The position numbers and the translations under genes are program-made. Source: an uncultured Candidatus Bathyarchaeia archaeon (GTDB lineage Archaea > Thermoproteota > Bathyarchaeia > Bathyarchaeales > Bathycorpusculaceae). From it: a stretch of DNA of 64,000 nucleotides. Location: NCBI GenBank assembly GCA_964582085.1, contig CAZOPV010000006.1:17026-81025 (forward strand), given 5' to 3'. How positions within the stretch are numbered: position 1 is the first letter of the stretch; every line of letters starts with the position of its first letter. Shown one piece after another: positions 30,752 through 59,143 of this stretch. The notes beneath the pieces are model-generated. The model worked only from the letters and a program-made list of their open reading frames with translations. It did no database searches and was not told the DNA's origin.

Positions 30752-30793
30752 ACCTTCTGCTTCTTGTTTCTCACGAGGAGAGAAGGTGAGATA

Positions 30794-36819: not shown

Positions 36820-36913
36820 TACTGTAACCTGTTTTGGTGTTTAACAATGGGATTTTACTTGTTTCAGCTTGATGCTTTTCTACCTTTTTGCGTTGAAAAT
36901 GTAATTCTGACGG

Positions 36914-38857
36914 TTAACTTTGGTTTTTCTCTTTTTGTGCCATGATTGCCGTCAATTCTTTGATTGTGTCTCTTAGTTCAATTGCCCTTTCAAAATCTAG
37001 TCGCTCTGCTGCTTCCCGCATTTTTGCTTCTAACTCGACCAGTTGTTTGTGAATGTCGGCTTTAGCTAAGTGCTTGACGCTTTTGATTGTGCCTTCTTTT
37101 AGGGAGACGCTCTTCACGATGGTTTTTGGTGTGATGCCGTGGAGGCGGTTGAAGTTCATTTGGAATTTGCGTCTGTACGCGGTGATTTCCATGGCGCGTT
37201 TAATTGATTGTGTTTTCACGTCGGCGTACAGTATAACTTTGCCTTTTTCGTTGCGGGCTGCTCGTCCAATTGTTTGAATTAGGCTGCGTTCATCACGTAG
37301 AAAGCCTTCTTTGTCGGCGTCTAAAATGAAGATTGTGGCAACTTCTGGTATGTCTAGACCTTCGCGGAGCAAGTTTATTCCGACGAGTATGTCGTATTCT
37401 CCTATCCGAAGTTGCCGTACGAGCTCTATGCGGTCGAGGCTATCTATGTCTGAGTGCATGTATCTGACGCGGAATCCTTCTTTGACTAAGTAGTCTGTGA
37501 GATCTTCTGCCATACGTTTTGTTAGCGTTGTAATTAGCACACGGTTGCCCTCATTGATTGTTTTTTTTGCTTCCGACATGAGGTGTTGCATCTGGTCTGT
37601 GATGGGGTGCAGTTCCACTTGAGGGTCCAAAAGTCCTGTAGGGCGGGTGATTAGCTCTACAGGTGGACCGCTTTTTTCTAGCTCGTATTCCGCGGGTGTT
37701 GCTGAAACAAACAGTGTTTTTCCCATTTTCTGCTCGAATTCTTCGAATTTTAGTGGGCGATTATCAAATGCGCTGGGGAGTCTAAAGCCGAAGTCCACTA
37801 GATTCTTTTTGCGTGAGTAGTCGCCGTTGTACATTGCGCGGGCTTGGGGTATGGTTTGGTGGCTTTCATCTATAATTAGCAGGTAGTCTTTTGGGAAGTA
37901 ATCCATTAACGTGAACGGTGGTTCACCTGGTTTGCGTCCGTCGAAATGTCTGCTGTAGTTTTCCATGCCTGAGCAGAATCCCATCTCTCGAATCATTTCT
38001 AAATCGTAGTTTGTGCGTTGTTTGAGGCGTTGCGCTTCAAGTGGTGGCAATTGTGGTAGTCTTTCTTCTAGTTCTCGTTGTATCTGTTGCAGTGCGCGTT
38101 CATGTTTTTCTTGGGGCACTACATACTGCCGCGCCGGGTACAGTGTGATCTTGTCGACGGTGTTTTTTACGTCGGCTGTGAGTGCGTTGACTTCTTTGAT
38201 TTTCTTGATTTTGCCTGAGTCAAGTTCTATTCTTAAAATATCTTTCTCGTAAGCCGGGATTACGTCTATGGTTTCTCCGCGAACGCGAAATCTGCCGGCT
38301 TCCAGAAAAGCATCGTTGCGTTCATATTGCATATCAACTAAGGTGTGAATTAGCTTTTGCCTGTTTATCTCTTTGCCTACTTCTAGTTCGACAGCCATGC
38401 TTTTGAAGTCGTCAGGGTTGCCTAAGCTGTAGATGCAGCTTATACTAGCAACTATAATTGTGTCACTTCTGCTTACGATGCTTGAGACCGCGTGCATACG
38501 CATCTTTTCGATCTCTGCGTTTACGTCTGAGTCTTTTTCTATGTAGGTGTCTGTTGTTGGAATGTAAGATTCGGGTTGATAGTAATCGTAGAAAGAGATG
38601 AAATATTCAACTCTGTTCTTGGGGAAAAACTCTTTCAACTCAGCGTAAAGCTGAGCTGCCAGCGTTTTGTTGTGTGCGATGATGAGCGTTGGTTTCTGAA
38701 GTCGGTTAATTACGTTGGCCATGACAAATGTTTTGCCGCTGCCTGTTATCCCTAGAAGTGTCTGTTTGTCTTTTTTTGAGAATCCTGCCACTATCTTTTC
38801 AACTGCTTCTTCTTGTCCAGGTGATGTTTTGAATGGTGCAATTAGTTCGAACTGCAT
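36914..38857 (-). CDS. uvrB: Excinuclease ABC subunit B
   Basis: GITGSGKTF Walker A, DESH box, helicase motifs and a C-terminal UVR domain (ERLDFERAIELRD). Confidence 0.95.
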   Translation of the reverse strand: MQFELIAPFKTSPGQEEAVEKIVAGFSKKDKQTLLGITGSGKTFVMANVINRLQKPTLIIAHNKTLAAQLYAELKEFFPKNRVEYFISFYDYYQPESYIPTTDTYIEKDSDVNAEIEKMRMHAVSSIVSRSDTIIVASISCIYSLGNPDDFKSMAVELEVGKEINRQKLIHTLVDMQYERNDAFLEAGRFRVRGETIDVIPAYEKDILRIELDSGKIKKIKEVNALTADVKNTVDKITLYPARQYVVPQEKHERALQQIQRELEERLPQLPPLEAQRLKQRTNYDLEMIREMGFCSGMENYSRHFDGRKPGEPPFTLMDYFPKDYLLIIDESHQTIPQARAMYNGDYSRKKNLVDFGFRLPSAFDNRPLKFEEFEQKMGKTLFVSATPAEYELEKSGPPVELITRPTGLLDPQVELHPITDQMQHLMSEAKKTINEGNRVLITTLTKRMAEDLTDYLVKEGFRVRYMHSDIDSLDRIELVRQLRIGEYDILVGINLLREGLDIPEVATIFILDADKEGFLRDERSLIQTIGRAARNEKGKVILYADVKTQSIKRAMEITAYRRKFQMNFNRLHGITPKTIVKSVSLKEGTIKSVKHLAKADIHKQLVELEAKMREAAERLDFERAIELRDTIKELTAIMAQKEKNQS

Positions 38858-39083: not shown

Positions 39084-40022
39084 ATGGCGCAGCCAATGGT
39101 CGATTCGGCGTTGCCTTTAGCCGTGACTAAGTTGAAGAAAATGGGAATCCAAAAAGGCGGCAAACCTCTTTTAGGAGGCGAGGCAACCTATAGAAAATTG
39201 TTCAACACCTTTGCTGAGCCGGTTTTTATTGCTGATTATGAGACTGGAGTAATTCTTGACTGTAACACGGCTTCTTTTGAGTTGACGTCTTTTTCGAAAG
39301 CAGAGTTGGTTGGCGTGAAAATAAATTCTTTGTTTTATAGTGCGCCTGAAAAGATTGCCGCGGCGTCTGTTGAGCAGTTTCTGGGGTGTACTGAAGGGCA
39401 AGTTGTTAATGCGACGCTGATCACAAAGGGGGGTGTCAAAAAGGAGGTTGCGGTTCGGTTTGATACTTTAATGTTTAACCGGCGGAAAATTGTGCGTTTG
39501 ATGTTTTGGGATGTCACGGAGAAAAAGCGACTTGAGGAATTATTGGTCAAAGTGGTTTACAAATTAAGTGGGCTCTCGCCTGGTGACAGTGTGATTTATG
39601 GTTCTCATGAGCGGTGTTTTAATGTCTATGAGAGTCTTGTATGTATCAGCTTGCCCTCTTTGTGTATTGTTCATGGTGATCCGCAGAAGTTAATAGATAT
39701 GTATGATGTTCCTGTGGAGTCCGTTAGATTGTTGGCTTCTAAATCTATTAAGGGGTTTAGTGTTTTGCCTAATCTACAGGAGCTTTCTCTTGAGTTATCT
39801 AGGTTTTTGAATACCTATAAGAGGGGGGTTATTCTTCTTGATGGTTTGGAGCGTTTAATTAGTACTTATGGTTTTGAGGCGGTATATCAGTTTATTCAAG
39901 AGAAGCATTTTGATTTGTTGGAGCATGATTCTTTTTTGCTTATGCCTATGAATTTAGATGCGCTCAGTAAAGTGGAAAAGGCATATTTGGCAAGTGAAGT
40001 TAAAATTATTGAGGGAAACTAG
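39084..40022 (+). CDS. Cytoplasmic PAS sensor with C-terminal DUF835 domain
   Basis: PAS (YRKLFNTFAEPVFIADYETGVILDCNTAS..WDVTEKKRLEE). The C-terminus LCIVHGDPQKLIDMYDV..VILLDGLERLISTYGFEAVYQFIQEKHFDLL matches the DUF835 pattern. ATG 39084 follows a GGGGGA SD-like run. Confidence 0.75.
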   Translation: MAQPMVDSALPLAVTKLKKMGIQKGGKPLLGGEATYRKLFNTFAEPVFIADYETGVILDCNTASFELTSFSKAELVGVKINSLFYSAPEKIAAASVEQFLGCTEGQVVNATLITKGGVKKEVAVRFDTLMFNRRKIVRLMFWDVTEKKRLEELLVKVVYKLSGLSPGDSVIYGSHERCFNVYESLVCISLPSLCIVHGDPQKLIDMYDVPVESVRLLASKSIKGFSVLPNLQELSLELSRFLNTYKRGVILLDGLERLISTYGFEAVYQFIQEKHFDLLEHDSFLLMPMNLDALSKVEKAYLASEVKIIEGN

Positions 40023-40163
40023 GGGGCGGGTTCTTCAGGGGTGCGAGGTAATTAGTTTTTTGTTGTGGTTTGTTTTTTTGGTGTAAGTGTTTAATTTAGA
40101 GGTTGTGTTCGACAAAAAATTAATTATGTTAGACGTCGCTTATCTGTTATCGCTGGTTGTTTG

Positions 40164-41654
40164 ATGACTGAGAAACAACTGACTTCTAAAAGGCGCATTT
40201 TAGAGACTTTTAAAATTAATGAACCTTTTCAGTTTGCTGTCCTCTCAGAGGACCCTGCTACTCATGAGCTTTGGTATGAAGTCTTTGAGCCTACTCTTCA
40301 GGAGGCGGAAAAAAAGTATTTTACGGATATTAGAAATTTTTTGGTTGAGGAAATTGATGTTACTTTTTCTGAGTTGGGGTCGGAGGAGAAAGCTAGGGAG
40401 TATTTAAGTGATCAGGTTAAGCGGATTGTTAAAAAGTTTCGTATTCGTGTGGGTGAAGCGAGTTTAGCGAAGATCCTTTATTATATTAATCGAGATTTTG
40501 TTGGTTACGGCAAGATTGATGTGATGATGCGTGATCCTCTGATTGAGGATATCAGTTGTAATGGGGTTTCGGGTCCTGTTTATGTTTGGCACAGGGAGTA
40601 TGAGTCTATTCCTACGAATGTTAGTTTTGATTCGGAGGATGAGTTGAATTCTTTTGTTATAAAATTGGCTTATAGGACTGGGCGCATGATTTCTGTGGCT
40701 AATCCGATTTTGGATTCGATTCTTGCGGATGGTAGCCGTATTCAGATGACTTATGGGAAAGCAGTTACTAGGGGCGGGTCGACGTTTACTATTCGGAAGT
40801 TTAAGGCTGATCCGTTGACTATAATTGATTTGATAAAGTTTAAGACGGTTCCTCTTAAGTTGGCTGCGTTTTTGTGGTACTTTGTAGAGAATAAGCTGGA
40901 CATTTTTGTTTGTGGTCCTACGGCGTCAGGTAAGACTACTACGCTTAATTGTTTGTCAGCTTTTATTCAGCCTGATTTTAAGATCATTACTATTGAGGAT
41001 ACGCCTGAGTTGCAGCTTCATCATAAAAACTGGCTTAGATCTGTTTCGCGTCCCAGTGGTGGTTCTTCTGCGGAGATTAGTCTTTATGATCTTTTGAGGG
41101 CGGCTATGCGGCAGAGACCTGATTATATTATTGTGGGGGAGATAAGGGGTGCTGAGGCGTATACGCTTTTTCAGGCGATGGCGACTGGGCATGGGGGTTT
41201 TTCGTCTTTGCATGCTGAGTCTGTGGCTTCGGTTGTGCATCGTCTTGAAACTGAACCGATGAATATACCGCGGACGTTAGTTACGAGTTTGGATTTTGTG
41301 CTTATCCAGCAGAAGTTGCAGGTGGAAGGTAAGCCTGTTAGGCGAGTTACTTCTGCTACTGAGTTTGTTGGTTTGGATACGCGGACTAATGAGATAATTA
41401 CTAATGAGGTGTTTAGCTATAATGCTAATAATGATGCGTATCAGTATTCAGGTAGGTCTTATCATTTGGAGAAGATTGCTAAAAGCAGTGGAAAGAGCCT
41501 AAAGGACGTTATGGAGGAGGTTGAGAAGAGAAGTTTGATTCTTGATTGGATGGTGAAGAATGATATTCGGCGGTTCAAAGATGTAACTGAGGTTATTCGT
41601 GGCTTTTACAGTAATCCTGAGGAGATTTATAGTCGGATTAAGGTTGGGTCATGA
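40164..41654 (+). CDS. FlaI/PilB-type (T2SS-E family) secretion ATPase, second copy
   Basis: Walker A VCGPTASGKTT, Walker B YIIVGEIRGAEA, His box GHGGFSSLHA. It is collinear with 24295..25875. Confidence 0.9.
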   Translation: MTEKQLTSKRRILETFKINEPFQFAVLSEDPATHELWYEVFEPTLQEAEKKYFTDIRNFLVEEIDVTFSELGSEEKAREYLSDQVKRIVKKFRIRVGEASLAKILYYINRDFVGYGKIDVMMRDPLIEDISCNGVSGPVYVWHREYESIPTNVSFDSEDELNSFVIKLAYRTGRMISVANPILDSILADGSRIQMTYGKAVTRGGSTFTIRKFKADPLTIIDLIKFKTVPLKLAAFLWYFVENKLDIFVCGPTASGKTTTLNCLSAFIQPDFKIITIEDTPELQLHHKNWLRSVSRPSGGSSAEISLYDLLRAAMRQRPDYIIVGEIRGAEAYTLFQAMATGHGGFSSLHAESVASVVHRLETEPMNIPRTLVTSLDFVLIQQKLQVEGKPVRRVTSATEFVGLDTRTNEIITNEVFSYNANNDAYQYSGRSYHLEKIAKSSGKSLKDVMEEVEKRSLILDWMVKNDIRRFKDVTEVIRGFYSNPEEIYSRIKVGS

Positions 41655-41716
41655 TTATGTTTCAGTTATCCTTCGCTGTGGGTTGGTTTACTTGGTTTCT
41701 GGTGGGGTGTTGAATA

Positions 41717-42643
41717 GTGAAACCTGAGTCGGTGGCGCTCAAAGGTTCTTCGTTTAGTTTTCATGAGTTTGGGTACCGTGTGTTGGGTGTTGCTCCTGCT
41801 CGTTTTTTTCCTTTGTCTGAGAGGCTGAGGCGGAATCTCCTTAGAGCAAATGTTAAGGTGAATCACGTTGTTTATGTGAGTTCGATGTTTTTTTGGAGTT
41901 TAGTTGCTTTTTTTGCGTCGTTGGTTTTGGTGCCTGTTTTGTTTGTTTCTTTTTCTTCTTTTCTCGGGGTGGTTTTTCCTTTGTCTTTTGTTGCTGTGGT
42001 GGGTTTGTTGGCTGGTGGGGTTAGTTTTGGTGTTTGTTTTGTGGTGTTTTTGTATTATCCGAGTTACAAGGCTTCTGTGTTGAAGATGAAAATTGAGAAG
42101 AATCTTGTGTATGTTGCTAATTATATGGCTATTCTTAGTGGTGCCGGTGCTACGCCTGGGGAGACTTTTAGTTCTCTTGCTAGGATTGGGGAGGTTTTTA
42201 GTTTGAAGGAGAGTGCACAGAGTGTTGTGCGTAGTGTTGAGTTGTTGGGGGAGGATTTGATAGCTGCTTTGGATGAGGAGAGTAAGCGAACTCCTAGTAG
42301 GGAGTATTCCAGTTTTCTTCAAGGTTATATTTCTACGGTGCAGACTGGTGGTAATTTGCATTTTTATTTGATGACTATGGCGAATAAGTTTACTGAGACT
42401 CGTCGTCGTCGGTTGAGTAAGATGATTTCTCAGTTGGGGTTGGCGGGGGAGCTTTACATCACGTTATTGGTTGCTTTTCCAATAATTATGATTACGTTGT
42501 TGGTTATTATGGGTGTTTTTGGCGGTGAGGTTATTGGTGGGCTTTCAGCTGCTCAGCTTTTGCCTCTTTTGGTTTATTTGTTGTTGCCGTCTGCTGCGGC
42601 GTTTGTGTTAGTTTATGTGGATGCTATAATGTCGAGTTGGTGA
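41717..42643 (+). CDS. Platform protein, N-terminal T2SS-F half (FlaJ/TadB-like)
   Basis: One T2SS-F domain (ANYMAILSGAGATPGETF..VQTGGNL) plus TM helices. It ends at TGA 42641-42643, in frame with the next ORF. Confidence 0.75.
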   Translation: MKPESVALKGSSFSFHEFGYRVLGVAPARFFPLSERLRRNLLRANVKVNHVVYVSSMFFWSLVAFFASLVLVPVLFVSFSSFLGVVFPLSFVAVVGLLAGGVSFGVCFVVFLYYPSYKASVLKMKIEKNLVYVANYMAILSGAGATPGETFSSLARIGEVFSLKESAQSVVRSVELLGEDLIAALDEESKRTPSREYSSFLQGYISTVQTGGNLHFYLMTMANKFTETRRRRLSKMISQLGLAGELYITLLVAFPIIMITLLVIMGVFGGEVIGGLSAAQLLPLLVYLLLPSAAAFVLVYVDAIMSSW

Positions 42644-42646
42644 AGT

Positions 42647-43477
42647 ATGAGGTTGTTTGGGTTTTTTTCTCTTAGAACCAAGCGGTTTGTCTATGTTGTA
42701 TCTTTGATTATGGCGTTTGTGGTGGTTGTTGTGGGGTACATGTCGGTGTCGTTGAGTTTCGTTTTTCATGCTTATGTCGCGGTTGGGTTTGCTGTTGGGT
42801 TGTTTTTTCCGTCTATTATTGTGCATTTGGAAAATCGGCGGAAGCGACTTATTGATAATGCTTGGCCTGTGCTTCTTGATAATTTGGCTGAGAGCCAAGC
42901 TGTTGGTTTGACTTTGCTTCAGGGGTTGGAGGATGTTTCTCGCCGGAATTATGGTCCTGTTACTGAGGAGTTACGTAAGTTGACTGCGAAGTTGACTTTT
43001 GGTGTGGAGTTTGAGAAGGCGTTTTTGGATTTTAGTAAGCGTATTGGCACGGAGTTTTCTGCTAAGGTGAGTGCGCTTATAGTTGAGGCGGTACGGTTGG
43101 GTGGTGATTTGAAGAGTTCTCTTAATTCTACGGCTCAATTTGTGAGGGAGATGATTGAGGTGAGGGATGAGCGTGAGTCTCAGCTTCGTCCTTATTTGTT
43201 TATAATTTACATCAGTTTTTTTGTTTTTGTTGGGGTTATTGTGCTTTTGTATCAGAGTTTGTTTGTGCCTATGGCGCAGTCTCAGCAGACTCAGTTCTTG
43301 AACATAACAATTTCGTTTGAGAGTTTTAGGGCGTTGTTATTTGATTTGGCTATTGTGGAAGCAATATTTGGGGGTTTGGCTGCTGGGAAACTTAGTGAGG
43401 GCATTATGTTGAATGGGCTGAAGCATTCTGTTGTTATGCTTGTAATTGTGACTGTTATCTTTACGTTCCTGCTTTGA
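42647..43477 (+). CDS. Platform protein, C-terminal T2SS-F half (FlaJ/TadC-like)
   Basis: Second T2SS-F domain (WPVLLDNLAESQAVGLTLLQGL..RLGGDL) plus TM helices. The ATG lies one codon after the in-frame TGA. Confidence 0.75.
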   Translation: MRLFGFFSLRTKRFVYVVSLIMAFVVVVVGYMSVSLSFVFHAYVAVGFAVGLFFPSIIVHLENRRKRLIDNAWPVLLDNLAESQAVGLTLLQGLEDVSRRNYGPVTEELRKLTAKLTFGVEFEKAFLDFSKRIGTEFSAKVSALIVEAVRLGGDLKSSLNSTAQFVREMIEVRDERESQLRPYLFIIYISFFVFVGVIVLLYQSLFVPMAQSQQTQFLNITISFESFRALLFDLAIVEAIFGGLAAGKLSEGIMLNGLKHSVVMLVIVTVIFTFLL

Positions 43478-43538
43478 ATTTTGAAGAAGTTTTTTTGGTT
43501 TACTCTTCTTTGGTTTGTGAAAAGAGTGAGAGGGTGTT

Positions 43539-44651
43539 TTAGTTTTTGTTGTCTTGTTTGTTTCTTTTGAAGAACCCGCCTATTTTTCCTGTCTTCTTGT
43601 CTGGCTCTTTTTTAGGTGGGGGTGTTGGAGCTGTGAATTGTTCTATGATGTCGAGTTTTTCTGTTTTTTCTTTTTTTTGTTTTGTTTTTTCTGGTTGCAT
43701 CCTATTTATCAATTCGTTTAGCGCTATGGTTGGGGATGCCTCTATTATGTTTAGTTTGTAGAATTGGATGAGTTTTTTTGCTTCTTCGTTGAAGGCGGAG
43801 GCGATTATGTAGGTTTCTATTTTTGCGTCGGATATTTTTTCGTGTTCCATGGTTATTTGGAATTTGTTGACGGGTTGGTTGGAGAATAGTGCGTCTATGG
43901 CGAGTTGTTTGCCAGCGTTTGTGTCGATTATGGCGTCAAATTCGTGTTGTATGCCTGATGCGCCTGTGATTTTGCCTGGGATGTGTACTTGGTGGTTTAG
44001 TTTTGTTAGGCTTTTTTCTACGAAGAAGGGAAAGAGTGCTCCGTTGTTGATTTCATTTTTGGTGGTGTCGCTGAGAGTGTAGTTGTGTGTTTCGACGTAT
44101 TTTGCGTCGTTGAAGTCGAATTTTTCTCCGCAGTTTCTACAGGTGTGGAGTGGTTGTGGGTTTTCGATACGTTTTTTGCAGTTGGCGCATTCGTACCATC
44201 TTCCTGCGCTTCTAACATCTGTTCTTTTGAGGGGAGCTTTGCATTTTGGGCAGATCAGGTTGTCGTCGACTTTGAAGTAGGGAAGGGTGTTTATGTAGCC
44301 GCAGGTAATGTGTTCGATGAGGGCGTTCCGTATTATTTGTGGAGAGCCGCAAGAGGGGCAGGTATAAGTGGTTGATATGTTGGCGTTGTTGCATTCTGGG
44401 CAGTGGAGTGCCATATCAATTGTTTTTTGGTTTAGGATGCCTAGGGCTGAGAGTTTTTTTAGAGTTTTTTCGGTGCTGGCGGGGTCTTTGTTTAGGAGAG
44501 CTTCGATTTCTGGGTAGTGATAGCCGTGGTTTGTGTCGTAAGTGGGGTTGAGGTTACCGTTTGCTTCGATGATTTTGAGGAGTAAGTGTGCTGTTTCAGC
44601 TTCTTTGTAGGCTTCATGTCGCTCTTTTGTTTCCTCTTGTGTTGTGCTCAT
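43539..44651 (-). CDS. Multi-zinc-ribbon protein with wHTH-like N-terminus, alpha/beta C-domain and Lys-rich tail
   Basis: CPECN..CPSCG, CPKCK..CANCK and CRNCG motifs. The K/E/P-rich C-terminal tail ends in GGFFKRNKQDNKN. Confidence 0.65.
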   Translation of the reverse strand: MSTTQEETKERHEAYKEAETAHLLLKIIEANGNLNPTYDTNHGYHYPEIEALLNKDPASTEKTLKKLSALGILNQKTIDMALHCPECNNANISTTYTCPSCGSPQIIRNALIEHITCGYINTLPYFKVDDNLICPKCKAPLKRTDVRSAGRWYECANCKKRIENPQPLHTCRNCGEKFDFNDAKYVETHNYTLSDTTKNEINNGALFPFFVEKSLTKLNHQVHIPGKITGASGIQHEFDAIIDTNAGKQLAIDALFSNQPVNKFQITMEHEKISDAKIETYIIASAFNEEAKKLIQFYKLNIIEASPTIALNELINRMQPEKTKQKKEKTEKLDIIEQFTAPTPPPKKEPDKKTGKIGGFFKRNKQDNKN

Positions 44652-44739
44652 AGGGGTGTTCCTGTTTTGTTTTTGGTTGTATGTGTATTTACGTTTTGGC
44701 GTTTATTAGCCTGTTGTCTGTGTTTCTTTTGGATTGGTT

Positions 44740-44955
44740 TTATGCAGTTTTTATGTATGAATAGTTACCTCTAAAGTCGCCAAGCCTGATCCGATAAGAA
44801 TCTGTTAATCCTTTCAGTTTCTTTATGTCGTAATATTCTGCTGGGACAGGGTTTTCACGTAAGATCAAAAGGGACTCAAAAATTCTCCGTTTAATATGTT
44901 CAGGTAACTTCTTGGAACTTATTTGGGCTTGTTTTGCAATGATAATGTTGAACAA
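44740..44955 (-). pseudogene. RelE/ParE-family toxin remnant (C-terminally truncated)
   Basis: ..LRENPVPAEYYDIKKLKGLTDSYRIRLGDFR.. matches the RelE/ParE core. The ORF stops about 20 aa earlier than typical family members. Confidence 0.55.
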
Positions 44956-44959
44956 TAGG

Positions 44960-45165
44960 TCAGCAACCGAGTTCCTCAATAAACTCTTGTAAATCTATCT
45001 TTGACCCCTTCGCTAATTCACGTTTAGCTCTTTTGATCTTTTTTCTATCTCGGTTGCCTCTTCCTCAGGTATTAGCAGAGCTCTTAATCTAAGGAGTTAG
45101 AGTTTGACTTCATCTATTTTGTTGAGAACTATCTTCAAGTTTTCGTCGCTGACTGTAACGGTCAC
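44960..45165 (-). pseudogene. Cognate antitoxin remnant (in-frame stop plus frameshift)
   Basis: The minus strand reads VTVTVSDENLKIVLNKIDEVKL*LLRLRALLIPEEEATEIEKRSKEL, then shifts frame to KRELAKGSKIDLQEFIEELGC*. Its stop overlaps the toxin start region. Confidence 0.45.
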
Positions 45166-45362
45166 AGTTTATAGCCTATCTTTAATATGGGCACAGCAAG
45201 AAGATTTCTCCTCTATTTAGGTATTCGTTAGAAGGCAGTAAAGTAGTTGGTAAATGGAGAGATTTATGCTTTTGTAGATTTAATGTTGCTTTTTTATTGT
45301 TCTTCAAGTTGATTTTGTGATAGCTTTTTTTGCTTTGGTTGCGCAGTTATTTTTTGAGGCTT

Positions 45363-45767
45363 ATGAACCGTGTGAGTAGAGCTCTTTTGGCGTTTACTCT
45401 TTTTGTGGTGACGTTTGCTTTGGCTTTCTGCTGTGTTGTGTGGTTGAGGAGTCCTGTCGTTGTTAGCCTTAGTGGTTTTGATGGGGAAACTTTTAGTGGT
45501 GTGTTTGAAGTTAAAGGGGGTAATTGTGATGTTGAAGTTGTGTATTTTCAGCGTTGGAGTTTGGGGTGGAGTTTGAGGGTTGAGCTTTTTGAGGAGGGAA
45601 AAAGTGAAGTGCCTGTGTTTTCAGCTACTGCTGTTCGCTATGTCCTTCCTGGTGGAACGGAGACTGTTGAGTTGAGTGCTCATCCGAGTCTTTCGCCTGG
45701 ACGATATTATCTTCGAGTTGAGTCTGTGGGTGTTCAGTGGACTGTGCACGTTGTTGAGTGGGAGTGA
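45363..45767 (+). CDS. Hypothetical N-terminally anchored beta-rich protein
   Basis: MNRVSRALLAFTLFVVTFALAFCCVVWL anchor followed by a ~100-aa beta-rich domain. Confidence 0.5.
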   Translation: MNRVSRALLAFTLFVVTFALAFCCVVWLRSPVVVSLSGFDGETFSGVFEVKGGNCDVEVVYFQRWSLGWSLRVELFEEGKSEVPVFSATAVRYVLPGGTETVELSAHPSLSPGRYYLRVESVGVQWTVHVVEWE

Positions 45768-45896
45768 CGGGGTTGTTTTTGTAAAGTAAAGTTAGACGAT
45801 GTAAGCGAGGGTTTTGTTTGGTGTTGTAGTTTTTTGTGTGTTTTGGGCGGTTTGTTTTTTGTTTTCTTTTTGTTGTATCATGTTTGTCGCTCCTGT

Positions 45897-46817
45897 TTAG
45901 GTTATTCTTGCTGCTGTGTCTATGTTGATGCCGTTTTCGTCGGTTGTGAATGTTAGCACCAGTGGCTTTAGGAGGCCTTTCATTTTTCTTATTGTGAGGT
46001 TATTTTCGAATTCGTGTGGTCCTTGTTTGAGTGTGAATTCTATGACGCCGTCTGCTAAGTTTTTGAGGGCGTTTATTTGGTTTTCTGCGTGGATGCCTAT
46101 AGGTATCACTGCAAAGTGTAGCCCTCCGTGGGTGCGTGTGACTGCTCTCCAGTAGAGCATGAGGTTGCTGATTTCTTTTGTGTCGTAGTTGGAGAGTAAA
46201 TGTCCCAGTTCGATGGTTGTCCAGTAGCCTTCTTTGGTTTTTGTTAGGAGGTCTGTTTTGAGTGCGTTTAGTCCTGTGGTTAATTTTATGCTGTTTCTGT
46301 TTGTGAGTCTTTTTGGGGAGAGGTCGGCTAGTTGTTGTAGGTCTGGAGTTTGTATGTCAATGAATTTCCAGTTTTCACTGTTTACGGCGTCTTTTATTGT
46401 CCAGTTGAATTTTTCCATTTTTTCTTGGATGTCTATGCTTAAGGTTTCAGCGAGGTAGCAGGCGGTTTTTCCGTTTTCCAAGGTGTGGTTGTATAGGATT
46501 TGCTGGGTGAAGACGTCGTAATTGCTGCCTACTTCGCCGCAAATGAGGATGAGACAGTGGTCAGGTATGCCTCCGCCTAAAGCGGCATCTATGCCTGATA
46601 TGCCTGTGCTGACAATTTTTTGGGCGGCGTTTTCTGTTTTGGTCATGAGCTGCTCCGGCTCTTGCTTCTCTTCGCGAGGGACGCGTTGAGGGGGTTCCCC
46701 GATTTTTGGAAGCGGCGGGGGCGTTTCCTCTTTGGGTTCGTAACGTGCAAAGGTTTCTTCTATCACGTCACGCGTCCGCTTCTTCTGTACGGTGTTTTGG
46801 TCGGAGTTTTTACTCAT
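45897..46817 (-). CDS. KaiC/RecA-like protein with degenerate Walker A and a disordered N-terminal extension
   Basis: GISGIDAALGGGIPDHCLILICGEVGSNYD replaces the GxxGxGK[ST] P-loop. A ~75-aa E/P/K-rich N-terminus precedes it. Confidence 0.7.
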   Translation of the reverse strand: MSKNSDQNTVQKKRTRDVIEETFARYEPKEETPPPLPKIGEPPQRVPREEKQEPEQLMTKTENAAQKIVSTGISGIDAALGGGIPDHCLILICGEVGSNYDVFTQQILYNHTLENGKTACYLAETLSIDIQEKMEKFNWTIKDAVNSENWKFIDIQTPDLQQLADLSPKRLTNRNSIKLTTGLNALKTDLLTKTKEGYWTTIELGHLLSNYDTKEISNLMLYWRAVTRTHGGLHFAVIPIGIHAENQINALKNLADGVIEFTLKQGPHEFENNLTIRKMKGLLKPLVLTFTTDENGINIDTAARIT

Positions 46818-47001
46818 GGCAAGTAACCTGACTTAAATTTTATTTTTTTCAGTAAGAAACTTGAGGGGTTGATGAATGCGCGTCTTTGGCGTCAGCAGCA
46901 AGAGATAAAGAACGACCAGGCAGGACATATGGAAATGGATATTTTATCATCCCTGAACCTGCCTCGGTCTCTCTTGTTATGTGGCTTTTTTTCCTCTTTT
47001 A

Positions 47002-47532
47002 TTACCACTCGCCGGGCGTGTAGTAAGTGCCTTCAACCACGAAACCAGTGCTCGTTACCAGTTTCAGCGTATAAGCAGTGTTCACGGCAAGATCAGTTCG
47101 TATGGTTACGGTTTTTGTTGTTTCTGGTATTGGCAATGAGAGACCACCAGATTTAAAACCAATCGAGGCTGTCCAAGTTGTGGCGTTTGTGAAGCCTGAG
47201 TTTAGGACGTCGCCCTGTGGGACAGTCAGGCTGCTTACTGATTCGCTGATTATGATTTGGCTTCCCTTTACGAGGTGGATGGCTTCAATTGTAGCTGCTA
47301 CTGAGCCGGTGTTTCTTATGCTCACATAGATACCATATGTGTTGTCTGTCGTGTTTTTGCCGAAATAGACTGCGTCGAGTTTTATTCCTGTTTGGGCTTG
47401 CTGGGATTGGTTGGTTGCCAGCGACATGGTCCACGTGTATGTTACTATCGCAGCTGCTACGGCTATGGCTACGAGAAGCAACGTGGCTATGATTGGGCTA
47501 ACTCCGCGCCGATTTAGTTTGAGTTTTTGCAT
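47002..47532 (-). CDS. Archaeal type IV pilin (DUF361-type class III signal peptide)
   Basis: MQKLKLNRRG|VSPIIATLLLVAIAVAAAIVTYTW. GGAGG lies 9 nt upstream of ATG 47532. The track start at 47550 lies inside the SD. Confidence 0.85.
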   Translation of the reverse strand: MQKLKLNRRGVSPIIATLLLVAIAVAAAIVTYTWTMSLATNQSQQAQTGIKLDAVYFGKNTTDNTYGIYVSIRNTGSVAATIEAIHLVKGSQIIISESVSSLTVPQGDVLNSGFTNATTWTASIGFKSGGLSLPIPETTKTVTIRTDLAVNTAYTLKLVTSTGFVVEGTYYTPGEW

Positions 47533-47610
47533 TTTTGTTTTTTCCTCCAATTTGTTTAGTTTAATCTTATGTGGATCTTGCGCTTAAAGGTGGTGCTGCC
47601 GCAAGTGTAT

Positions 47611-47642
47611 GTTAATTGTATTTCATTTGTACTACAATTAAC
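47611..47642. promoter_or_regulatory. Perfect 10-bp inverted repeat (candidate operator) in the divergent pilin / KaiC-like intergenic region
   Basis: GTTAATTGTA-N12-TACAATTAAC. Confidence 0.4.
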
Positions 47643-47886
47643 TTACAAACGAAAAACTTCAGAAAAATAAGCAAAAAAACGTAAATTTTAAACAAATAAA
47701 AACTGAACATTAACAAAAATAGAGCATAAACCAGCAATGTGAATTAACCTCTACACTGCCCTTGTCAGCAAAAACAGTGCCTCAAAAACAATCCAAATGT
47801 ACGTCAACGCCAACACGTCAAGTCGCCCCATCTAAACAACAATATAAATACATCATGCACCAAAATAGACTAAAGAGAGGCAAAAC

Positions 47887-48603
47887 ATGAGCCAACGTGT
47901 ACCTACAGGTATCAAAGGTTTTGACGAACTCGTCGAAGGCGGCTTCCCAAACGAGAGCCTAATTCTAATGGCAGGCGAACCGGGTGCAGGAAAAACAACC
48001 TTCTCAGCCCAATTTCTCTACGAAGGCGCAACCAACTTTGGAGAAAGAGGCGTCTACGTATGTTTCGCTGAAACAAAAAAGGCCCTCCTCCGCAACATGC
48101 TCCGGTTCGGGTGGGACTTTGAGCGTCTCGAACTAGAAAAACGCTGTCTCGTTTTAGACCTCTCCACCTCAAAAGAAGCAGGTATCCAAAACAACCTTGA
48201 CATTATGTTGCGCGAAGTCACAGCTCTAAAAGCTAAAAGACTCGTCATAGACTCCTTCACATCCATGGCTATGGCCATGAAAGAAAGCATAGAAATACGC
48301 CACCTTGCACACTTACTCTACAAATTTCTCCAAAGCGTAGGCTGCACAACCGTCATGATCTCCGACACGCCATGGGGCTCAAAAAAAATAGGCTCCGGCA
48401 TCGAGGAATTCATAGCTGACGGCATAATCCTTATGCACACATACTTCAACAAAACCGGCGAACTCAACAGAAAACTCCGCATCATCAAAATGCGAAACAC
48501 CAAACACTCACTGATGACCCACAAATACCATATCCTCTCCACAGGAATCAACATTTCACCAGCCGAAACAACAAAACAAAAAGGAGAAAGAAAAGGTGCC
48601 TAA
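47887..48603 (+). CDS. Single-domain KaiC-like ATPase (ArlH/RadA-like fold)
   Basis: GIKGFDELVEGGFPNESLILMAGEPGAGKTTF Walker A and KRLVIDSFTS Walker B. 238 aa. Confidence 0.8.
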   Translation: MSQRVPTGIKGFDELVEGGFPNESLILMAGEPGAGKTTFSAQFLYEGATNFGERGVYVCFAETKKALLRNMLRFGWDFERLELEKRCLVLDLSTSKEAGIQNNLDIMLREVTALKAKRLVIDSFTSMAMAMKESIEIRHLAHLLYKFLQSVGCTTVMISDTPWGSKKIGSGIEEFIADGIILMHTYFNKTGELNRKLRIIKMRNTKHSLMTHKYHILSTGINISPAETTKQKGERKGA

Positions 48604-48811
48604 AATCAAATCAGAAACCAAAGACTCCATAATCTACCTCCGCATAACGAACACGATAAAAAGCCTTGTAACCTACCAAGCAACTCAAGAAGGCATAACC
48701 CCTTCAGAGTGGCTTCGGAAAATTATAATAAAAGAACTCCGAGAACGCAATGCCCTACCCGCTACGTTCAAAGTGCCCACAGTCCCAAGAACACTCGAAG
48801 ACCAACAATAG
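48596..48811 (+). CDS. Ribbon-helix-helix (CopG/Arc-like) DNA-binding protein
   Basis: IIYLRITNTIKSLVTYQATQEGITPSEWLRKIIIKELRE fits a beta-alpha-alpha RHH layout. The GTG start overlaps the KaiC-like gene by 8 nt. Confidence 0.55.
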   Translation: MPKIKSETKDSIIYLRITNTIKSLVTYQATQEGITPSEWLRKIIIKELRERNALPATFKVPTVPRTLEDQQ

Positions 48812-48831
48812 CAGTATGCTGTTCCAGTTAG

Positions 48832-50487
48832 TTAAGGCGCCACTTGCACTACGGCACCACAATACGCTGAAGTTATTGAAGGTGAAAAATTCGGGTAATA
48901 TGCGGTAATTGCCAAATTATACAGTGTAGTTGCCAAAACTGCAGGCGTAATAGCGCTAAACTGGTAAACTAAGTAGTTGCCGCCTGCAAGGGTTGAAGAA
49001 GATGATTCTACAGAAATTCTCCACGAACCATCCTCCTGCTGCGTTATTAATTGAGAGCTATAGTTCCACCCAGTTTGAGCACCTGCAGTTACATTACGCC
49101 ACCCTGTGGGAATTTGCAAAAGCAGATTAATTTTCGAAGTTAAGGTATCTGCACCAGCGCTATTATAAATCACCACATTGAAGGTCTGGTTAGACGAGGG
49201 TAAAACATTTGAAAGACAATACTGCCTATTTGATAGCGGAGTATTTGGTGTTCTGGTAAGATATACGTTGATAGCGGGATACGTGTTAGCTGTGGAGGTT
49301 GCAAAATTCTTAAGAAATCTGCCTTCAGTAGTTATTGCTTCTACCGTAACCTGTGTTTCAATCACCTCAACGTTGTCAATTTCAACAGTGAAGGTGAAAT
49401 TATAAACAGAAAGCGGTGGTATCGTTATCGGTGCACTACCTGCCCTGCCAGCCTCCCAAAAAACACCTGAATATACCCCAGAGGATCTCCGTGCATACCA
49501 CCCAGTTGCAGGGTTCACGCCGGTTAAAGAGTTTGGATCAAAAATGTTCAAGGCTGTTGATATCACAGCTACAGAATAGACCGTAATGGAACGATTATAA
49601 GGGTTAGCCAAGGCGACACCCCAATAGGTGAGAACGCCATCGGTAGTATCAAGAAGCGCAGGTATACTACCAAACGCATCTAAATGTATCAGCGGCATAG
49701 ATGTAACTTCCGCCGAAACCTGCAACGAGGTCGCATAGATCGTAGTCATGGCGTAATTGCCTGCAGGAGCGCCAACAAACGACCCGTTTAACGTAGAACT
49801 TAAACCTGAGCCAGTTACCTTGTAAACGTAAACAAAATAGGCAGCGCTTCCAGCAGGCAACAACTCTATAATTGGAGGGTTAGGACCATCTACTAATTCC
49901 AAACTTGATGGCGGATTTACATCCAGTGTAGGAGTCAAATTATAAATGTTGTTTCCTGACGTGTCGTTGTTGGTTACGCATAAAATGACTGTCACGTTAT
50001 TACCAATATAGTTGGTGGAAGTTGCCATTATGCTAATCCGCGCTTTAATCGAAGCCACTATATTGTAACTAGCAACATTACCCCTTTCAGTAACGACGCG
50101 TACAGCATAATTCTTACCAGAAGTCAATGGTAGGCTTGTAACGTTACTTATAGACATGCCTGGAGTAATGTAAAGACTAGAAAAATTAACTGAGAGATGT
50201 TCATTGTTAGTTTGGTTAATTATCCATAAACGCATGAGCCTAGCTGTAACAGAGCCTTGATTGGTAATGTTAAGAACCAAATGATTATCAGAATTTAAAT
50301 AAGCCGCAGTTATCACAACGTGCTCCTGAGAACGTTCAGTATCCAAACGCCGCATCCTCTCTTGGATTTGATAAACCTCAGTGAGAAACGCCGCCATCAA
50401 AACAATTAAACTGAGAAACAGCACCGCACCTATGGCTGTCGCTTGGCCGCGCTTTGACTGCCTAAAGCGCCGCAAATTCTTCAGCAA
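48832..50487 (-). CDS. Large pilin-like surface protein (class III signal peptide)
   Basis: RQSKRG|QATAIGAVLFLSLIVLMAAFL followed by a pilin-type beta domain (LVLNITNQGSVTARLMRLWI) and a ~400-aa extension with many N-x-S/T sequons. Confidence 0.7.
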   Translation of the reverse strand: MLKNLRRFRQSKRGQATAIGAVLFLSLIVLMAAFLTEVYQIQERMRRLDTERSQEHVVITAAYLNSDNHLVLNITNQGSVTARLMRLWIINQTNNEHLSVNFSSLYITPGMSISNVTSLPLTSGKNYAVRVVTERGNVASYNIVASIKARISIMATSTNYIGNNVTVILCVTNNDTSGNNIYNLTPTLDVNPPSSLELVDGPNPPIIELLPAGSAAYFVYVYKVTGSGLSSTLNGSFVGAPAGNYAMTTIYATSLQVSAEVTSMPLIHLDAFGSIPALLDTTDGVLTYWGVALANPYNRSITVYSVAVISTALNIFDPNSLTGVNPATGWYARRSSGVYSGVFWEAGRAGSAPITIPPLSVYNFTFTVEIDNVEVIETQVTVEAITTEGRFLKNFATSTANTYPAINVYLTRTPNTPLSNRQYCLSNVLPSSNQTFNVVIYNSAGADTLTSKINLLLQIPTGWRNVTAGAQTGWNYSSQLITQQEDGSWRISVESSSSTLAGGNYLVYQFSAITPAVLATTLYNLAITAYYPNFSPSITSAYCGAVVQVAP

Positions 50488-50692
50488 GAAATCCCCTCAA
50501 CATCCAAGAGCTCTGCAAGCAAATTATCAGTTCGCCCCAGCAGTAATGTCCATTTTTTACATCATTGAGAATAATAATTGCTACTATTAATAAAACTAAT
50601 TCCGTCAGACATCAAAACTACACAACAACACTATCCTCGGGAAACCAGACTGACAAAGAAGCAAACAACGTAAGCCCGCCCAAAGCGCGTTG

Positions 50693-52039
50693 CTACCGTA
50701 GGAGCACCACAGGAAAGAAAGCAAAAAAGAAAACCACAGTTACCAACAGTTGGACAACCAACGCTCCCTTCTTTATTCTATCTGAAAGCGGAAGGCTACG
50801 CCAGAAGTAAGGAATCCCCAAAGCCAAAGCGGGGATCGTATAGATAAAATAATAATTGAACGTCATGCGCTGCACAAACAACCCAAACAAGAACCACGGC
50901 AAATACGTCGCAGTTATCCAAGAAATATAAAACAAGGCCACCTTGACGTTACTTTTCTTTAAAAGACTCCAAAGCGCCACAGCCAAAATGGGAACCAGCA
51001 TATACGCAACCGTAGGCGTCACCTGAGAAACATAGTCCACAGTAACCTTTGAAACATTATCCGAAGTCACCGCCACCGAGAAGTAATGCGGCGAATTGAA
51101 TACGTCGCCAATTGGCAGTATCCACGACCATGGTGGACGGTAATTTGCTTCTGTAGTGTTAATGGTGGGCGCTAAACCTGAAAAGTAACCAAATGCAAAC
51201 AACATATGCTCAACAGGGTTAGTTATGTAATTTGACACCGTAAAATTGGAAGTCGACGTTATCGTCGTTAAAGTGGCACCATTCGCGTCAACAACAATGT
51301 TTTCATTTATGTTCTGCACAAGAACCGTCGAAGTCGTCGGCTTATAGACTACGTCATAAACCCAAAGTCCTCCTCCACCAACCAAAAGAAGCACCAAAAA
51401 GAAAGAACCAAATTTTTGGATGTTCACTTTGCTTAAATGCTTCTTTAGTGAAAGGTGAGTTAGTATGTGATAAATAAAAACAGCGCCAATTAAAAGTAGC
51501 GCCAGTTCCTTCATCAAGAACGCCACGCCGAAGGCAACAGCAGACCACTTGTACCGCTTAGCAAAATAAAGTTCAATGCCCAAGAGCCCAAACAAAATCG
51601 CAGGCAAATCTAAAATAAAAATTGAACCATTAACAAAATACATGACATCAAACGAGAGAAAAGCCGTAGCCAACAAGGCATACTTGCCATCTAGGAACCG
51701 TCTTGCGATTAAATAGAAAACGTAAAGCGACAAAACCGACATAACAACTATCGGTAATCGCCATGCCAACCAATAATTCCCAAAAACCGCGATTGACAAC
51801 CCAACAACGATCTTCGCCAGGGGCGTATGCTCAGCATTAGCCGCCTCCAAATGAAGCGTCTTCAAAGCAGCAGGGACATAATGTGCCTCATCAAAAACGT
51901 AGCCGTCAGAGGGCGTAGACATAATAAGGAAATGCAACGCCAAAACCAAAAGAAGCAAATAACCTATGTTAAACTTCTTCAAAAACGCTTGCGTCTTATT
52001 CCACACGGAATATAAATCTAACTCCAGTTTTATGCTCAA
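50693..52039 (-). CDS. GT-C fold glycosyltransferase, PMT_2 / ArnT-like (dolichyl-phosphate-mannose-protein mannosyltransferase family)
   Basis: About 11 TM helices. The first extracytoplasmic loop carries DGYVFDEAHY, which matches the family DE motif. Confidence 0.7.
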   Translation of the reverse strand: MSIKLELDLYSVWNKTQAFLKKFNIGYLLLLVLALHFLIMSTPSDGYVFDEAHYVPAALKTLHLEAANAEHTPLAKIVVGLSIAVFGNYWLAWRLPIVVMSVLSLYVFYLIARRFLDGKYALLATAFLSFDVMYFVNGSIFILDLPAILFGLLGIELYFAKRYKWSAVAFGVAFLMKELALLLIGAVFIYHILTHLSLKKHLSKVNIQKFGSFFLVLLLVGGGGLWVYDVVYKPTTSTVLVQNINENIVVDANGATLTTITSTSNFTVSNYITNPVEHMLFAFGYFSGLAPTINTTEANYRPPWSWILPIGDVFNSPHYFSVAVTSDNVSKVTVDYVSQVTPTVAYMLVPILAVALWSLLKKSNVKVALFYISWITATYLPWFLFGLFVQRMTFNYYFIYTIPALALGIPYFWRSLPLSDRIKKGALVVQLLVTVVFFFAFFPVVLLR

Positions 52040-52091
52040 CGTGCAGCTCAGCTTCCGTTTTATATAAAGCTACGCGCAAATAAACTTTTTT

Positions 52092-52694: not shown

Positions 52695-52908
52695 ACAAGA
52701 CACACGTTTGATAGCTTTTATAACAAAGGTACTGATACTTCTTACTTGTGGTCAAACTAAAGTAAAAACCCTCAAACAGTACAGGAAACAATTCAACTAT
52801 GAACAAGCTAACACGCTCATTCAACAGCAAAGCAACATGCTTCACCACCCTAAAACACCGCAGGTACCTCTTTAAATGGGGTACCAAAAAAAGAAGGCGC
52901 ACAGACAA

Positions 52909-59071: not shown

Positions 59072-59143
59072 TTACACCAAACAAACCATAAATTCAAATA
59101 ATCACATCAACAAAAAACCTAAACAAGAAAACAGGTGCAATCA

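Follow-up and report, generated by a model that had tools for sequence, protein, structure and literature searches.

Bathyarchaeia are abundant, uncultured archaea of sediments and hot springs, and to our knowledge their surface structures are unstudied. A 64,000-nucleotide stretch of DNA from an uncultured Candidatus Bathyarchaeia archaeon (assembly GCA_964582085.1, contig CAZOPV010000006.1, positions 17,026–81,025; hereafter the window) carries, at positions 39084–50487, a gene for a PAS-DUF835 sensor directly upstream of the genes for a type IV filament (TFF) assembly ATPase and its platform, together with genes for KaiC-like proteins and pilins. The arrangement raises the question of which filament this motor serves and whether the sensor and the KaiC-like proteins control it. 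A first-pass annotation saw here a signal-gated machine whose control logic was thought to be undescribed. Our analysis points to a non-archaellar type IV pilus (T4P) locus, and our best overall explanation, to which we give a probability of roughly 55%, adds to it a layer of KaiC-superfamily proteins that would act on the motor.

In the archaellum, the KaiC-like protein ArlH binds ArlI and the phosphorylation state of ArlH controls the complex, and in Haloferax the KaiC-like protein CirA represses motility. KaiC-like proteins have reportedly been proposed, by Makarova in mBio in 2017, as archaeal signalling hubs. According to Makarova, Koonin & Albers (2016), KaiC-family ATPases are strongly associated with archaeal T4P, namely with the archaellum, with clade 2, to which a few Thaumarchaea belong, and with subclade 4B, and KaiC-family genes and arCOG06883 are proposed as T4P regulators or partners. 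Galperin et al. (2018) named the TackOD1 domain, noted it in Bathyarchaeota and in T4P loci and described it as an output domain of response regulators; DUF835 (PF05763), which occurs in proteins of the REC-DUF835 and REC-PAS-PAS-DUF835 types, they list under the label 'iKaiC' as a KaiC-like domain that has been inactivated. Platforms split over two genes are known from TFF system 1 and from subsystems 4A, which occurs in some Bathyarchaeota and has accessory genes downstream of the platform, and 4B, which is linked to RecA/KaiC-like ATPases (Sivabalasarma & Albers 2026, preprint).

Results

Window proteins were scanned with Pfam and NCBIfam profiles. The motor gene (40164–41654, + strand) encodes a PilB/GspE2-like assembly ATPase (T2SSE, PF00437, 138 bits) in which the Walker A (GPTASGKT, residue 252), Asp box (IEDTPE, 278), Walker B (DYIIVGEIR, 321) and His box (TGHGGFSSLH, 342) motifs are intact. 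Downstream on the same strand, the platform is encoded as a TadC/PilC-like N-terminal half (41717–42643) and, 3 nt further on, a C-terminal half (42647–43477; 68.5 bits), each with one T2SSF (PF00482) domain; the two align with the N and C halves of the ArlJ and UpsF models, and the N half also with the BasF model (NCBIfam). The pilin gene (47002–47550, − strand) encodes a class III signal peptide, RRG followed by VSPIIATLLLVAI, and its product scores 35.9 bits against TIGR02537 (cutoff 20) and 24.9 bits against Pfam Pilin_N, just under the cutoff of 25.2. This pilin has a globular domain and is probably the major subunit. The locus therefore holds the parts by which a T4P or TFF system is recognised, a secretion-type ATPase with its four motifs, two T2SSF domains (here in two genes) and a class III signal-peptide subunit, and its gene content makes it highly likely that this is a chromosomal, non-archaellar T4P (TFF) biogenesis locus.

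The non-archaellar assignment of the ATPase was made from equivalog scores and a search of Protein Data Bank (PDB) sequences. The closest solved structure by sequence is that of Archaeoglobus fulgidus GspE2 (2OAP, 417 bits), with Sulfolobus acidocaldarius FlaI at 304 bits, and the score against the NCBIfam FlaI equivalog NF058587 is 442.5 bits at a cutoff of 550. The platform halves reach 27–59 bits with ArlJ models (cutoffs 400–570), and both KaiC-like proteins of the locus reach 47–51 bits with the ArlH model (cutoff 215). Profile searches found no archaellin, ArlF/G, ArlX or ArlCDE family in the window or in the neighbourhoods of eight relatives. Ups pilus and bindosome equivalogs likewise fall below their cutoffs, given here in brackets: UpsA 32 bits (130), UpsF 52 (400), BasE 242 (1000) and BasF 57 (1300). 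Because all of these scores lie under the equivalog cutoffs, membership in the archaellum, Ups pilus and bindosome classes was rejected, and the first-pass annotation is upheld in treating the locus as a further type IV filament module, distinct from the first one, rather than as an archaellum. Weak or faint Pfam PilB3_N or PilB3_C matches occur in some homologs of the ATPase; the window ATPase has neither at E ≤ 0.01. Homologs of the ATPase number thousands, and the named ones among the top matches come from Bathyarchaeota or Bathyarchaeia; the nearest deposited relative is the Candidatus Bathyarchaeota metagenome-assembled genome (MAG) GCA_026414485.1, whose ATPase is 95% identical.

How typical this motor is was judged from 80 related loci, one genome per species, mostly from Bathyarchaeia MAGs with a few from Asgard archaea and others (L010–L089), which were annotated via hidden Markov models built from the window proteins; gene neighbourhoods with ATPase homologs at 53–95% identity (including L001, L002, L004–L007, L009 and L170) were inspected individually. 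Two half-size platform genes follow the ATPase gene in 58 of the 68 loci with enough downstream sequence, and in 38 of 56 the 6 kb beyond it on that side include a gene for TackOD1, usually on the opposite strand. The first-pass annotation had proposed to ask whether KaiC-like genes are enriched beside such ATPases: 20 of the 33 KaiC-like open reading frames (ORFs) in these loci fall within 1.2 kb upstream of the ATPase gene, an interval that makes up about 6% of the span searched. Seventeen loci have a KaiC-like gene at this distance. Where the upstream flank extends to 1.5 kb or more, as in 67 loci, such a gene is present in 13, and in all 13 at least one KaiC-like copy is without the Walker A Lys-Ser/Thr. 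In four loci (L066–L068 and L072), genes for an active KaiC (347 residues), an inactivated KaiC-like protein (iKaiC, about 262 residues) and the ATPase run in the same direction, and the end of the iKaiC gene shares 4 nt with the start of the ATPase gene. Such a KaiC–iKaiC–ATPase order amounts, in a system that is not an archaellum, to an ArlH-ArlI-ArlJ-like operon. The label of L066, Dormiibacterota, is probably due to a binning error. Motor and split platform are the standard version in Bathyarchaeia, with TackOD1 downstream and/or iKaiC upstream.

The KaiC-like proteins of the window form a pair of one inactivated and one active-type member. The iKaiC (45897–46817, − strand) has GEVGSNYD in place of the Walker A consensus GxxGxGK[ST]. 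It gives a partial Pfam KaiC match, and ArlH and KaiC models of NCBIfam match below their cutoffs; profile to profile, it aligns with active KaiC at a probability of 99.9%. The loss of the P-loop is family-wide, with a motif GxPGSG[NH][EY] that is without the Lys-Ser/Thr, and its members usually stand immediately 5' of this clade of ATPase genes. With the products of the genes that occupy this place in L004 and L006, the window protein shares 47% and 27% identity, respectively. The active-type, single-domain KaiC-like ATPase (47887–48603, + strand) matches Pfam KaiC (PF06745) over its full length at 213.5 bits and has intact Walker A (GEPGAGKT) and Walker B (LVIDS) motifs. Its stop codon is overlapped by 8 nt by the start of an ORF for a 71-residue protein (48596–48811, + strand), in which a beta-alpha-alpha pattern is visible; the same small ORF is paired with the KaiC ortholog in L002, where the overlap is kept, and is also conserved in L011. 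The product is plausibly a ribbon-helix-helix (RHH) DNA-binding protein. An imperfect palindrome at 47606–47647, in the intergenic region between the divergent pilin and KaiC-RHH genes and 56–97 bp upstream of the pilin start, consists of a 20-nt inverted repeat that is 85% complementary, with a 2-nt spacer and the core GTTAATTGTA / TACAATTAAC; it is a candidate operator of the RHH protein.

The sensor gene (39084–40022, + strand) encodes a cytoplasmic protein without a transmembrane segment, recognised by Pfam PAS and PAS_9 (28.1 bits, cutoff 27) and DUF835 (PF05763, 42.7 bits, cutoff 33.1) matches. In its AlphaFold2 (AF2) model, the DUF835 domain has predicted local distance difference test (pLDDT) values of 83–94 and an alternating beta/alpha, Rossmann-like secondary structure. 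When a DUF835 profile of 134 domain segments was compared with the iKaiC profile in hhalign, the two aligned over 140 columns (probability 84.6%, E 6.8e-6), with the strand at the Walker A position, a Walker-B-like strand 'LLDGLE' and the strand after it in register; a DUF835 profile of only 6 sequences gave no significant result, and whole-ORF profiles (of DUF835, PAS, the pilin and the 551-residue protein described below) drifted onto unrelated PAS and pilin proteins and were discarded. The profile alignment lends moderate support to DUF835 being a degenerate, P-loop-less KaiC/RecA-like domain, in which case the order PAS-DUF835, ATPase, platform would mimic ArlH-ArlI-ArlJ. The statement of the first-pass annotation that no ArlH-I-J order is present is not supported, in view of this alignment, the iKaiC label of Galperin et al. 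(2018) and the P-loop-less KaiC-like gene that relatives carry directly upstream of the ATPase gene.

Close homologs of the window PAS-DUF835 are few, with only five non-identical ones in the word-indexed database and an identical protein on the JGI metagenome contig Ga0212092_1000104. The domain itself is widespread, and an exhaustive representative search returned 589 clusters at E ≤ 1e-3; in the best 150 of these matches it stands at or near the C-terminus of sensors of very variable length. Across the contigs in which the sensor gene lies 5' of the ATPase gene, PAS-DUF835 orthologs are 69–83% identical.

The gene convergent with the platform genes, 61 bp away (43539–44651, − strand), encodes an arCOG06883-type TackOD1 protein (PF18551, 107.3 bits, cutoff 32) with the roughly 11 conserved cysteines, in five CxxC and an HxxC motif, that characterise the family; residues C84, C87, C98, C101, H114, C117, C134, C137, C155, C158, H169, C171 and C174 are invariant. 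The AF2 model, built from a 14-sequence alignment, has a mean pLDDT of 84.9 (about 90 at residues 10–320) and comprises a helical N-terminus, a multi-zinc-ribbon beta domain, a C-terminal alpha/beta domain (about 205–320) and a disordered Lys/Pro tail that ends in a conserved GG[FIL]FK+ motif. Foldseek aligned the C-terminal domain of the model with NucS/EndoMS (1e-5), AF1548 (2.6e-5; root mean square deviation 4.0 over 121 columns), Can2/Card1, MspJI and Hjc, at a probability of 1.0, E values of 1e-5 to 1e-3 and template modelling scores on the target of 0.29–0.45. The domain thus appears PD-(D/E)xK-like in the model, a new detail for the family if the model is right. Asp239 and Asp253 are conserved, and Lys272 and Asp275 are invariant on the next helix; where the (D/E)xK motif should have its lysine, however, a hydrophobic residue stands (AID-A-L), which makes nuclease catalysis uncertain. 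Given its domain make-up, the use of TackOD1 as a response-regulator output elsewhere and the convergent transcription, the likeliest role of the protein is to regulate the locus by binding nucleic acid.

The second class III signal-peptide protein of the locus (48832–50487, − strand; signal peptide scan) is 551 residues long, with KRG before QATAIGAVLFLSLIVLMAAF (KRG, then QATAIG...), contains 14 N-x-S/T sequons and has no Pfam or NCBIfam match. Along its entire length it shares 57% identity with the product of a 563-residue gene in L002, which adjoins a small pilin gene and a KaiC gene; that small pilin is 32% identical to the window pilin. The 551-residue protein is probably a glycosylated large minor pilin or an adhesin. 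After its gene, in the interval 48832–54413, come genes for glycosyltransferases (PMT_2, GT2 and GT4) and for a methyltransferase, a cluster that may serve pilin or surface-protein glycosylation. The sub-module of pilin, 551-residue protein and KaiC-RHH genes is conserved in L002, so that the KaiC-family and pilin genes belong to a conserved neighbourhood, as first proposed. Indeed, all genes listed in the first-pass annotation are present with the features given, in the ORF map and in Pfam and NCBIfam, and their grouping recurs in relatives and so goes beyond chance.

That list had missed one conserved gene, which encodes a 145-residue protein (45330–45767, + strand) with an N-terminal hydrophobic anchor, a beta-rich domain and no Pfam match. 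Homologs occupy the same position in L001 and L002, with a 144-residue gene in L170, and the substitutions relative to L001 fall mostly at codon position 3 (46, versus 22 and 18 at the other two). The protein is a candidate minor pilin or membrane component. Between this gene and the TackOD1 gene lies an ORF of 79 residues (44740–44979, − strand), RelE/ParE-like by eye and without a Pfam match. Toxin-antitoxin genes or their remnants also occur in the pilus loci of L009 (a MazE/ParE pair at 8432–8967) and L002 (a weak MazE-like match at 19852–19998).

A first T4P locus lies at 21486–30751 and encodes two pilins, a DUF7266-like protein, a 526-residue ATPase and an unsplit 502-residue platform. 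It also contains three unknown genes, the product of one of which bears a class III-like signal peptide, and the gene of a TrmB-family regulator. As the first-pass annotation held, the locus studied here is not a copy of it: the two ATPases are 40% identical and the first platform is unsplit. The ATPase of the first locus is likewise closest to A. fulgidus GspE in the PDB sequence search. Between both pilus loci, and divergent from PAS-DUF835, stand uvrC-uvrA-uvrB (32324–38857, − strand), an adjacency found also in L001 and absent from L002, L004, L005, L007 and L009; because the more distant relatives are without it, it is probably incidental.

Some 10 kb from the pilus module, a second active KaiC-like ATPase (59135–59893, + strand; Pfam KaiC 211.7 bits) with an intact P-loop, 33% identical to the first, is paired with a response-regulator-type REC-PAS-GAF-PAS-DUF835 sensor (61142–63319, + strand; Pfam Response_reg, PAS_9, GAF_3, PAS_4 and DUF835, the last at 69 bits), whose domain arrangement belongs to a class that Galperin et al. 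(2018) list. This second KaiC possibly belongs to the same KaiC/DUF835 signalling network. Near the pair are genes for a 734-residue surface-type protein with an InlB B-repeat and for a 310-residue unknown protein. Elsewhere in the window, three PQQ/beta-propeller-type proteins are encoded on the + strand (2530–5034, 12583–15153 and 30764–32002), two of them large and with Ig or filamin repeats. A TrmB regulator gene directly precedes each of the last two genes (11550–12446 and 29816–30751), and two AsnC-type helix-turn-helix genes (1365–2323) precede the first; the proteins may be regulated surface proteins.

Between 38000 and 46000, GC skew rises to +0.42 and AT skew falls to −0.43, an asymmetry that gives rise to long spurious antisense ORFs (for example 41900–42361, − strand). 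Amino-acid composition accounts for the skew, with membrane proteins encoded on the + strand and, on the − strand, a protein rich in Lys, Glu and Asn, and the idea that it signals something unusual was rejected. Scans of the window for tRNA genes and Rfam families gave no matches. PADLOC returned a P-loop-level 'mad8' match for KaiC (34.7 bits), two marginal matches of about 18 bits to the REC part of the 61142–63319 protein and none for the other seven proteins scanned, a result that speaks against a defence island.

Discussion

In our preferred explanation, the KaiC-superfamily layer would work on the pilus motor as ArlH does on ArlI. The iKaiC, which would be unable to bind ATP normally, would dock on the ATPase hexamer or co-oligomerise beneath it. 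PAS-DUF835, which in this lineage holds the ArlH-like gene position, would pass a signal sensed by its PAS domain into mixed KaiC/iKaiC/DUF835 oligomers or directly into the motor. The active KaiC, translationally coupled to the RHH protein, would form with it a transcriptional arm acting on the divergent pilin gene, and TackOD1 would act as a nucleic-acid-binding regulator of the locus. By analogy with ArlH, we see an even chance that the KaiC layer has a regulatory part in this pilus; that PAS-DUF835 docks directly on the ATPase, as the same analogy suggests, is doubtful. In a bolder form of the explanation, archaeal pili that do not serve motility would in general be governed by an ArlH-like clutch that works post-translationally and is supplied by the KaiC superfamily: an iKaiC ring under a PilB-like hexamer would, in this lineage, be completed or replaced by PAS-DUF835 and active KaiC, assembly would be switched by a sensed ligand or redox signal, KaiC-RHH would set pilin transcription and TackOD1 would be a mutually exclusive alternative partner; this we consider unlikely.

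Several observations weigh against the preferred explanation, beginning with the fact that every regulatory step in it is argued from analogy. Of the 41 relatives whose flanks reach 6 kb or more to either side, 30 have TackOD1 only, six a KaiC-like gene only, five neither and none both. The combination, found in the window sub-clade (the window, L001, L004 and L011) and also in L087, is thus an unusual one whose members may not work together; TackOD1 and KaiC-like proteins may be alternative partners of the same motor. PAS-DUF835 lies 5' of the ATPase gene in four closely related contigs only (the window, L001, L170 and L009, with ATPases at least about 70% identical), and in L009 a 2.4-kb insertion, with a 411-residue gene and a MazE/ParE pair, separates the two. 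The DUF835/KaiC/pilin adjacency noted in the first-pass annotation is kept in part among relatives, for PAS-DUF835 and the ATPase in L001, L170 and L009 and for the pilin and KaiC-RHH genes in L002, and elsewhere it is not. Nor did DUF835 genes prove to be neighbours of FlaI-like ATPases in general: a sample of 80 metagenomic loci with genes for DUF835 relatives, which together amount to 642 kb, contains no T2SSE, TadC or TackOD1 gene.

The individual assignments on which the mechanism draws have weak points of the same kind. Against the active KaiC, DUF835 aligned co-linearly in hhalign and without significance (E 0.012); a BLASTP comparison of PAS-DUF835 with the product of the KaiC-like gene at the syntenic position in L004 detected no similarity, and the top 50 Foldseek matches of the full PAS-DUF835 model are PAS structures only, which swamp the DUF835 fold. 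The RHH assignment is a weak one because all profile matches of the 71-residue protein, although all to RHH-fold families, are sub-threshold (NikA-like at 18.4 bits, cutoff 27; RelB at 15.7, cutoff 22.4), so that of the RHH gene in the first-pass annotation the ORF and its overlap with the KaiC gene are real and the family is not secured. The region around the palindrome is AT-rich, and the repeat could be due to chance. Lastly, the window ORFs of at least 110 residues that were scanned for a class III signal peptidase (PibD/ArlK/EpdA) include no Peptidase_A24 match. The gene for this peptidase commonly lies elsewhere in the genome.

Two other accounts of PAS-DUF835 have to be set against the preferred explanation. 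The first, put forward in the first-pass annotation, is that PAS-DUF835 directly gates the ATPase of a signal-controlled filament or secretion machine while the KaiC pair and the RHH protein control the pilin, all under an undescribed scheme. The sensor gene does lie directly upstream of the ATPase gene and co-oriented with it, across a gap of 139 bp in the window, L001 and L170; DUF835 appears KaiC-like, as is the ArlH that binds ArlI; and the spacer holds a 15-nt inverted repeat (40049–40063 / 40112–40126, 93% complementary, 48 nt apart). However, the adjacency stays within one narrow clade, and at 66–68% ATPase identity the upstream slot is already filled by a plain iKaiC or by unrelated genes. 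With T2SSE beside none of the 80 DUF835 loci sampled, and with the components and their T4P association already in the comparative genomics literature, we hold this account to be improbable.

The second account makes PAS-DUF835 a mere neighbour of the pilus genes; the sensor would belong to the general archaeal KaiC signalling network as partner of the KaiC at 47887, of that at 59135 or of both, leaving only iKaiC and TackOD1 as true pilus accessories. In the metagenomic sample, KaiC-like genes occur in 15/80 DUF835 loci and within 1.5 kb of 10/68 DUF835 genes, and T4P genes are nearby in none; because KaiC-like neighbours recur and T2SSE is absent, KaiC-like ATPases appear to be the general partner of DUF835 sensors. 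The use of DUF835 as the C-terminal module of some 589 diverse sensor clusters, the second KaiC/DUF835 pair of the window, which is unrelated to pili, and the insertions in L009 fit this account as well. It sits poorly with the finding that PAS-DUF835 stays 5' of the ATPase gene in 4/4 contigs despite a differing flank (Uvr genes, and in L009 ribosomal protein, ELP3 and GatDE genes), and with the location of its candidate KaiC partners inside the pilus cluster itself; we likewise judge it to be improbable. The pilus link of DUF835 is lineage-specific and may work via the iKaiC and KaiC proteins inside the pilus cluster.

A filament for DNA uptake or exchange, with TackOD1 as a cytoplasmic DNA-handling component and uvrABC as a link to DNA damage as with Ups pili, would make sense of the PD-(D/E)xK-like fold resembling NucS/EndoMS and AF1548, of the Uvr genes that directly adjoin the locus in the window and L001 and of the weak UpsA (pilin) and UpsF (platform) matches. 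T4P-like pili are, moreover, needed for transformation in methanogens. Yet those two Ups scores are far under their cutoffs, the Uvr adjacency is missing from the five other relatives named above, TackOD1 is without the canonical lysine, and no Ced, ComEC or ComEA-like genes were seen; the use of TackOD1 as a response-regulator output domain, as given by Galperin et al. (2018), fits regulation better. We regard DNA uptake as very unlikely. Finally, a degenerate or divergent archaellum locus with its remaining Arl genes elsewhere in the genome is scarcely credible, for although the best NCBIfam match of the ATPase is the FlaI equivalog, the platform halves match ArlJ models and the KaiC-like genes recall ArlH, all scores are under the equivalog cutoffs, the ATPase is nearer to A. 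fulgidus GspE than to FlaI, some homologs have PilB3_N or PilB3_C matches, the platform is split, and the archaellin, ArlF/G, ArlCDE and ArlX families are absent from the window and the eight relatives' neighbourhoods.

Comparison with known systems places the locus near several of them. With the thaumarchaeal and TACK T4P loci, as described by Makarova et al. (2016) and Galperin et al. (2018), it shares a VirB11/FlaI-family ATPase, a TadC-type platform, class III pilins, a cysteine-rich cytoplasmic arCOG06883/TackOD1 protein and nearby KaiC-family genes; it differs in its bathyarchaeal host, the split platform, the P-loop-less KaiC nearest the motor and the PAS-DUF835 gene upstream of the ATPase gene. 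The additional PD-(D/E)xK-like C-terminal domain of the window TackOD1, as modelled, is not mentioned in the accessible part of the published description. With ArlH-ArlI-ArlJ, the locus shares the order of KaiC-like protein, hexameric ATPase and polytopic platform and, in some relatives, translational coupling of the KaiC-like and ATPase genes. The window proteins nevertheless fail the equivalog cutoffs, the KaiC-like partner has no Walker A lysine whereas ArlH binds ATP, and, unlike the archaellum, the locus has its platform in two genes and is without archaellins, ArlF/G, ArlX and ArlCDE.

To the non-archaellar euryarchaeal T4P ATPases (A. fulgidus GspE2, 2OAP; those of the Haloferax PilB3-PilC3 adhesion pili, clade or system 2), the likeness lies in the closest structure and in the faint PilB3 matches of homologs, and is one of sequence scores; system 2 has a single-gene platform in the 2026 TFF census, whereas that of the window is split. 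Two platform genes are shared with TFF system 1 (Epd) and subsystems 4A and 4B, the likeness to a subsystem being by description only. In contrast to the Epd major pilin, the window pilin has a globular domain, and no PilY-like adhesin was recognised in the window. Finally, PAS-DUF835 resembles the sensor-DUF835 proteins of Galperin et al. (2018) in its N-terminal input domain, C-terminal DUF835 and the frequency of KaiC-like neighbours. In the accessible text these are not described as tied to T4P motors, whereas in the window lineage one has become fixed beside an ATPase gene.

The claim that the control logic of this locus is undescribed is only partly right because the associations of KaiC-family genes and TackOD1 with T4P loci, and of split platforms, had already been published; what holds is that a PAS-DUF835 gene beside a motor gene is new. 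The novelty is thus this PAS-sensor fusion adjoining the motor gene, in a few close relatives only, and as a whole the locus represents a variant, specific to one lineage, on an association that comparative genomics had predicted before; it does not amount to a system of a new kind.

For the biology of Bathyarchaeia, the locus type described here is a common pilus machine of the group. It also provides a compact test case for the proposal that KaiC-like proteins are signalling hubs, with a putative fusion of sensor and iKaiC, an iKaiC that is unfused, an active KaiC and a candidate DNA-binding partner gathered around one motor. Should binding of a P-loop-less KaiC-like protein to a non-archaellar assembly ATPase be demonstrated, the paradigm of ArlH and ArlI would come to cover pili as well, and the uncharacterised TackOD1 and DUF835 would gain a functional context. 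Were the KaiC superfamily indeed a general clutch, ArlH-ArlI would be one case of a wider and older coupling between KaiC proteins and filament motors.

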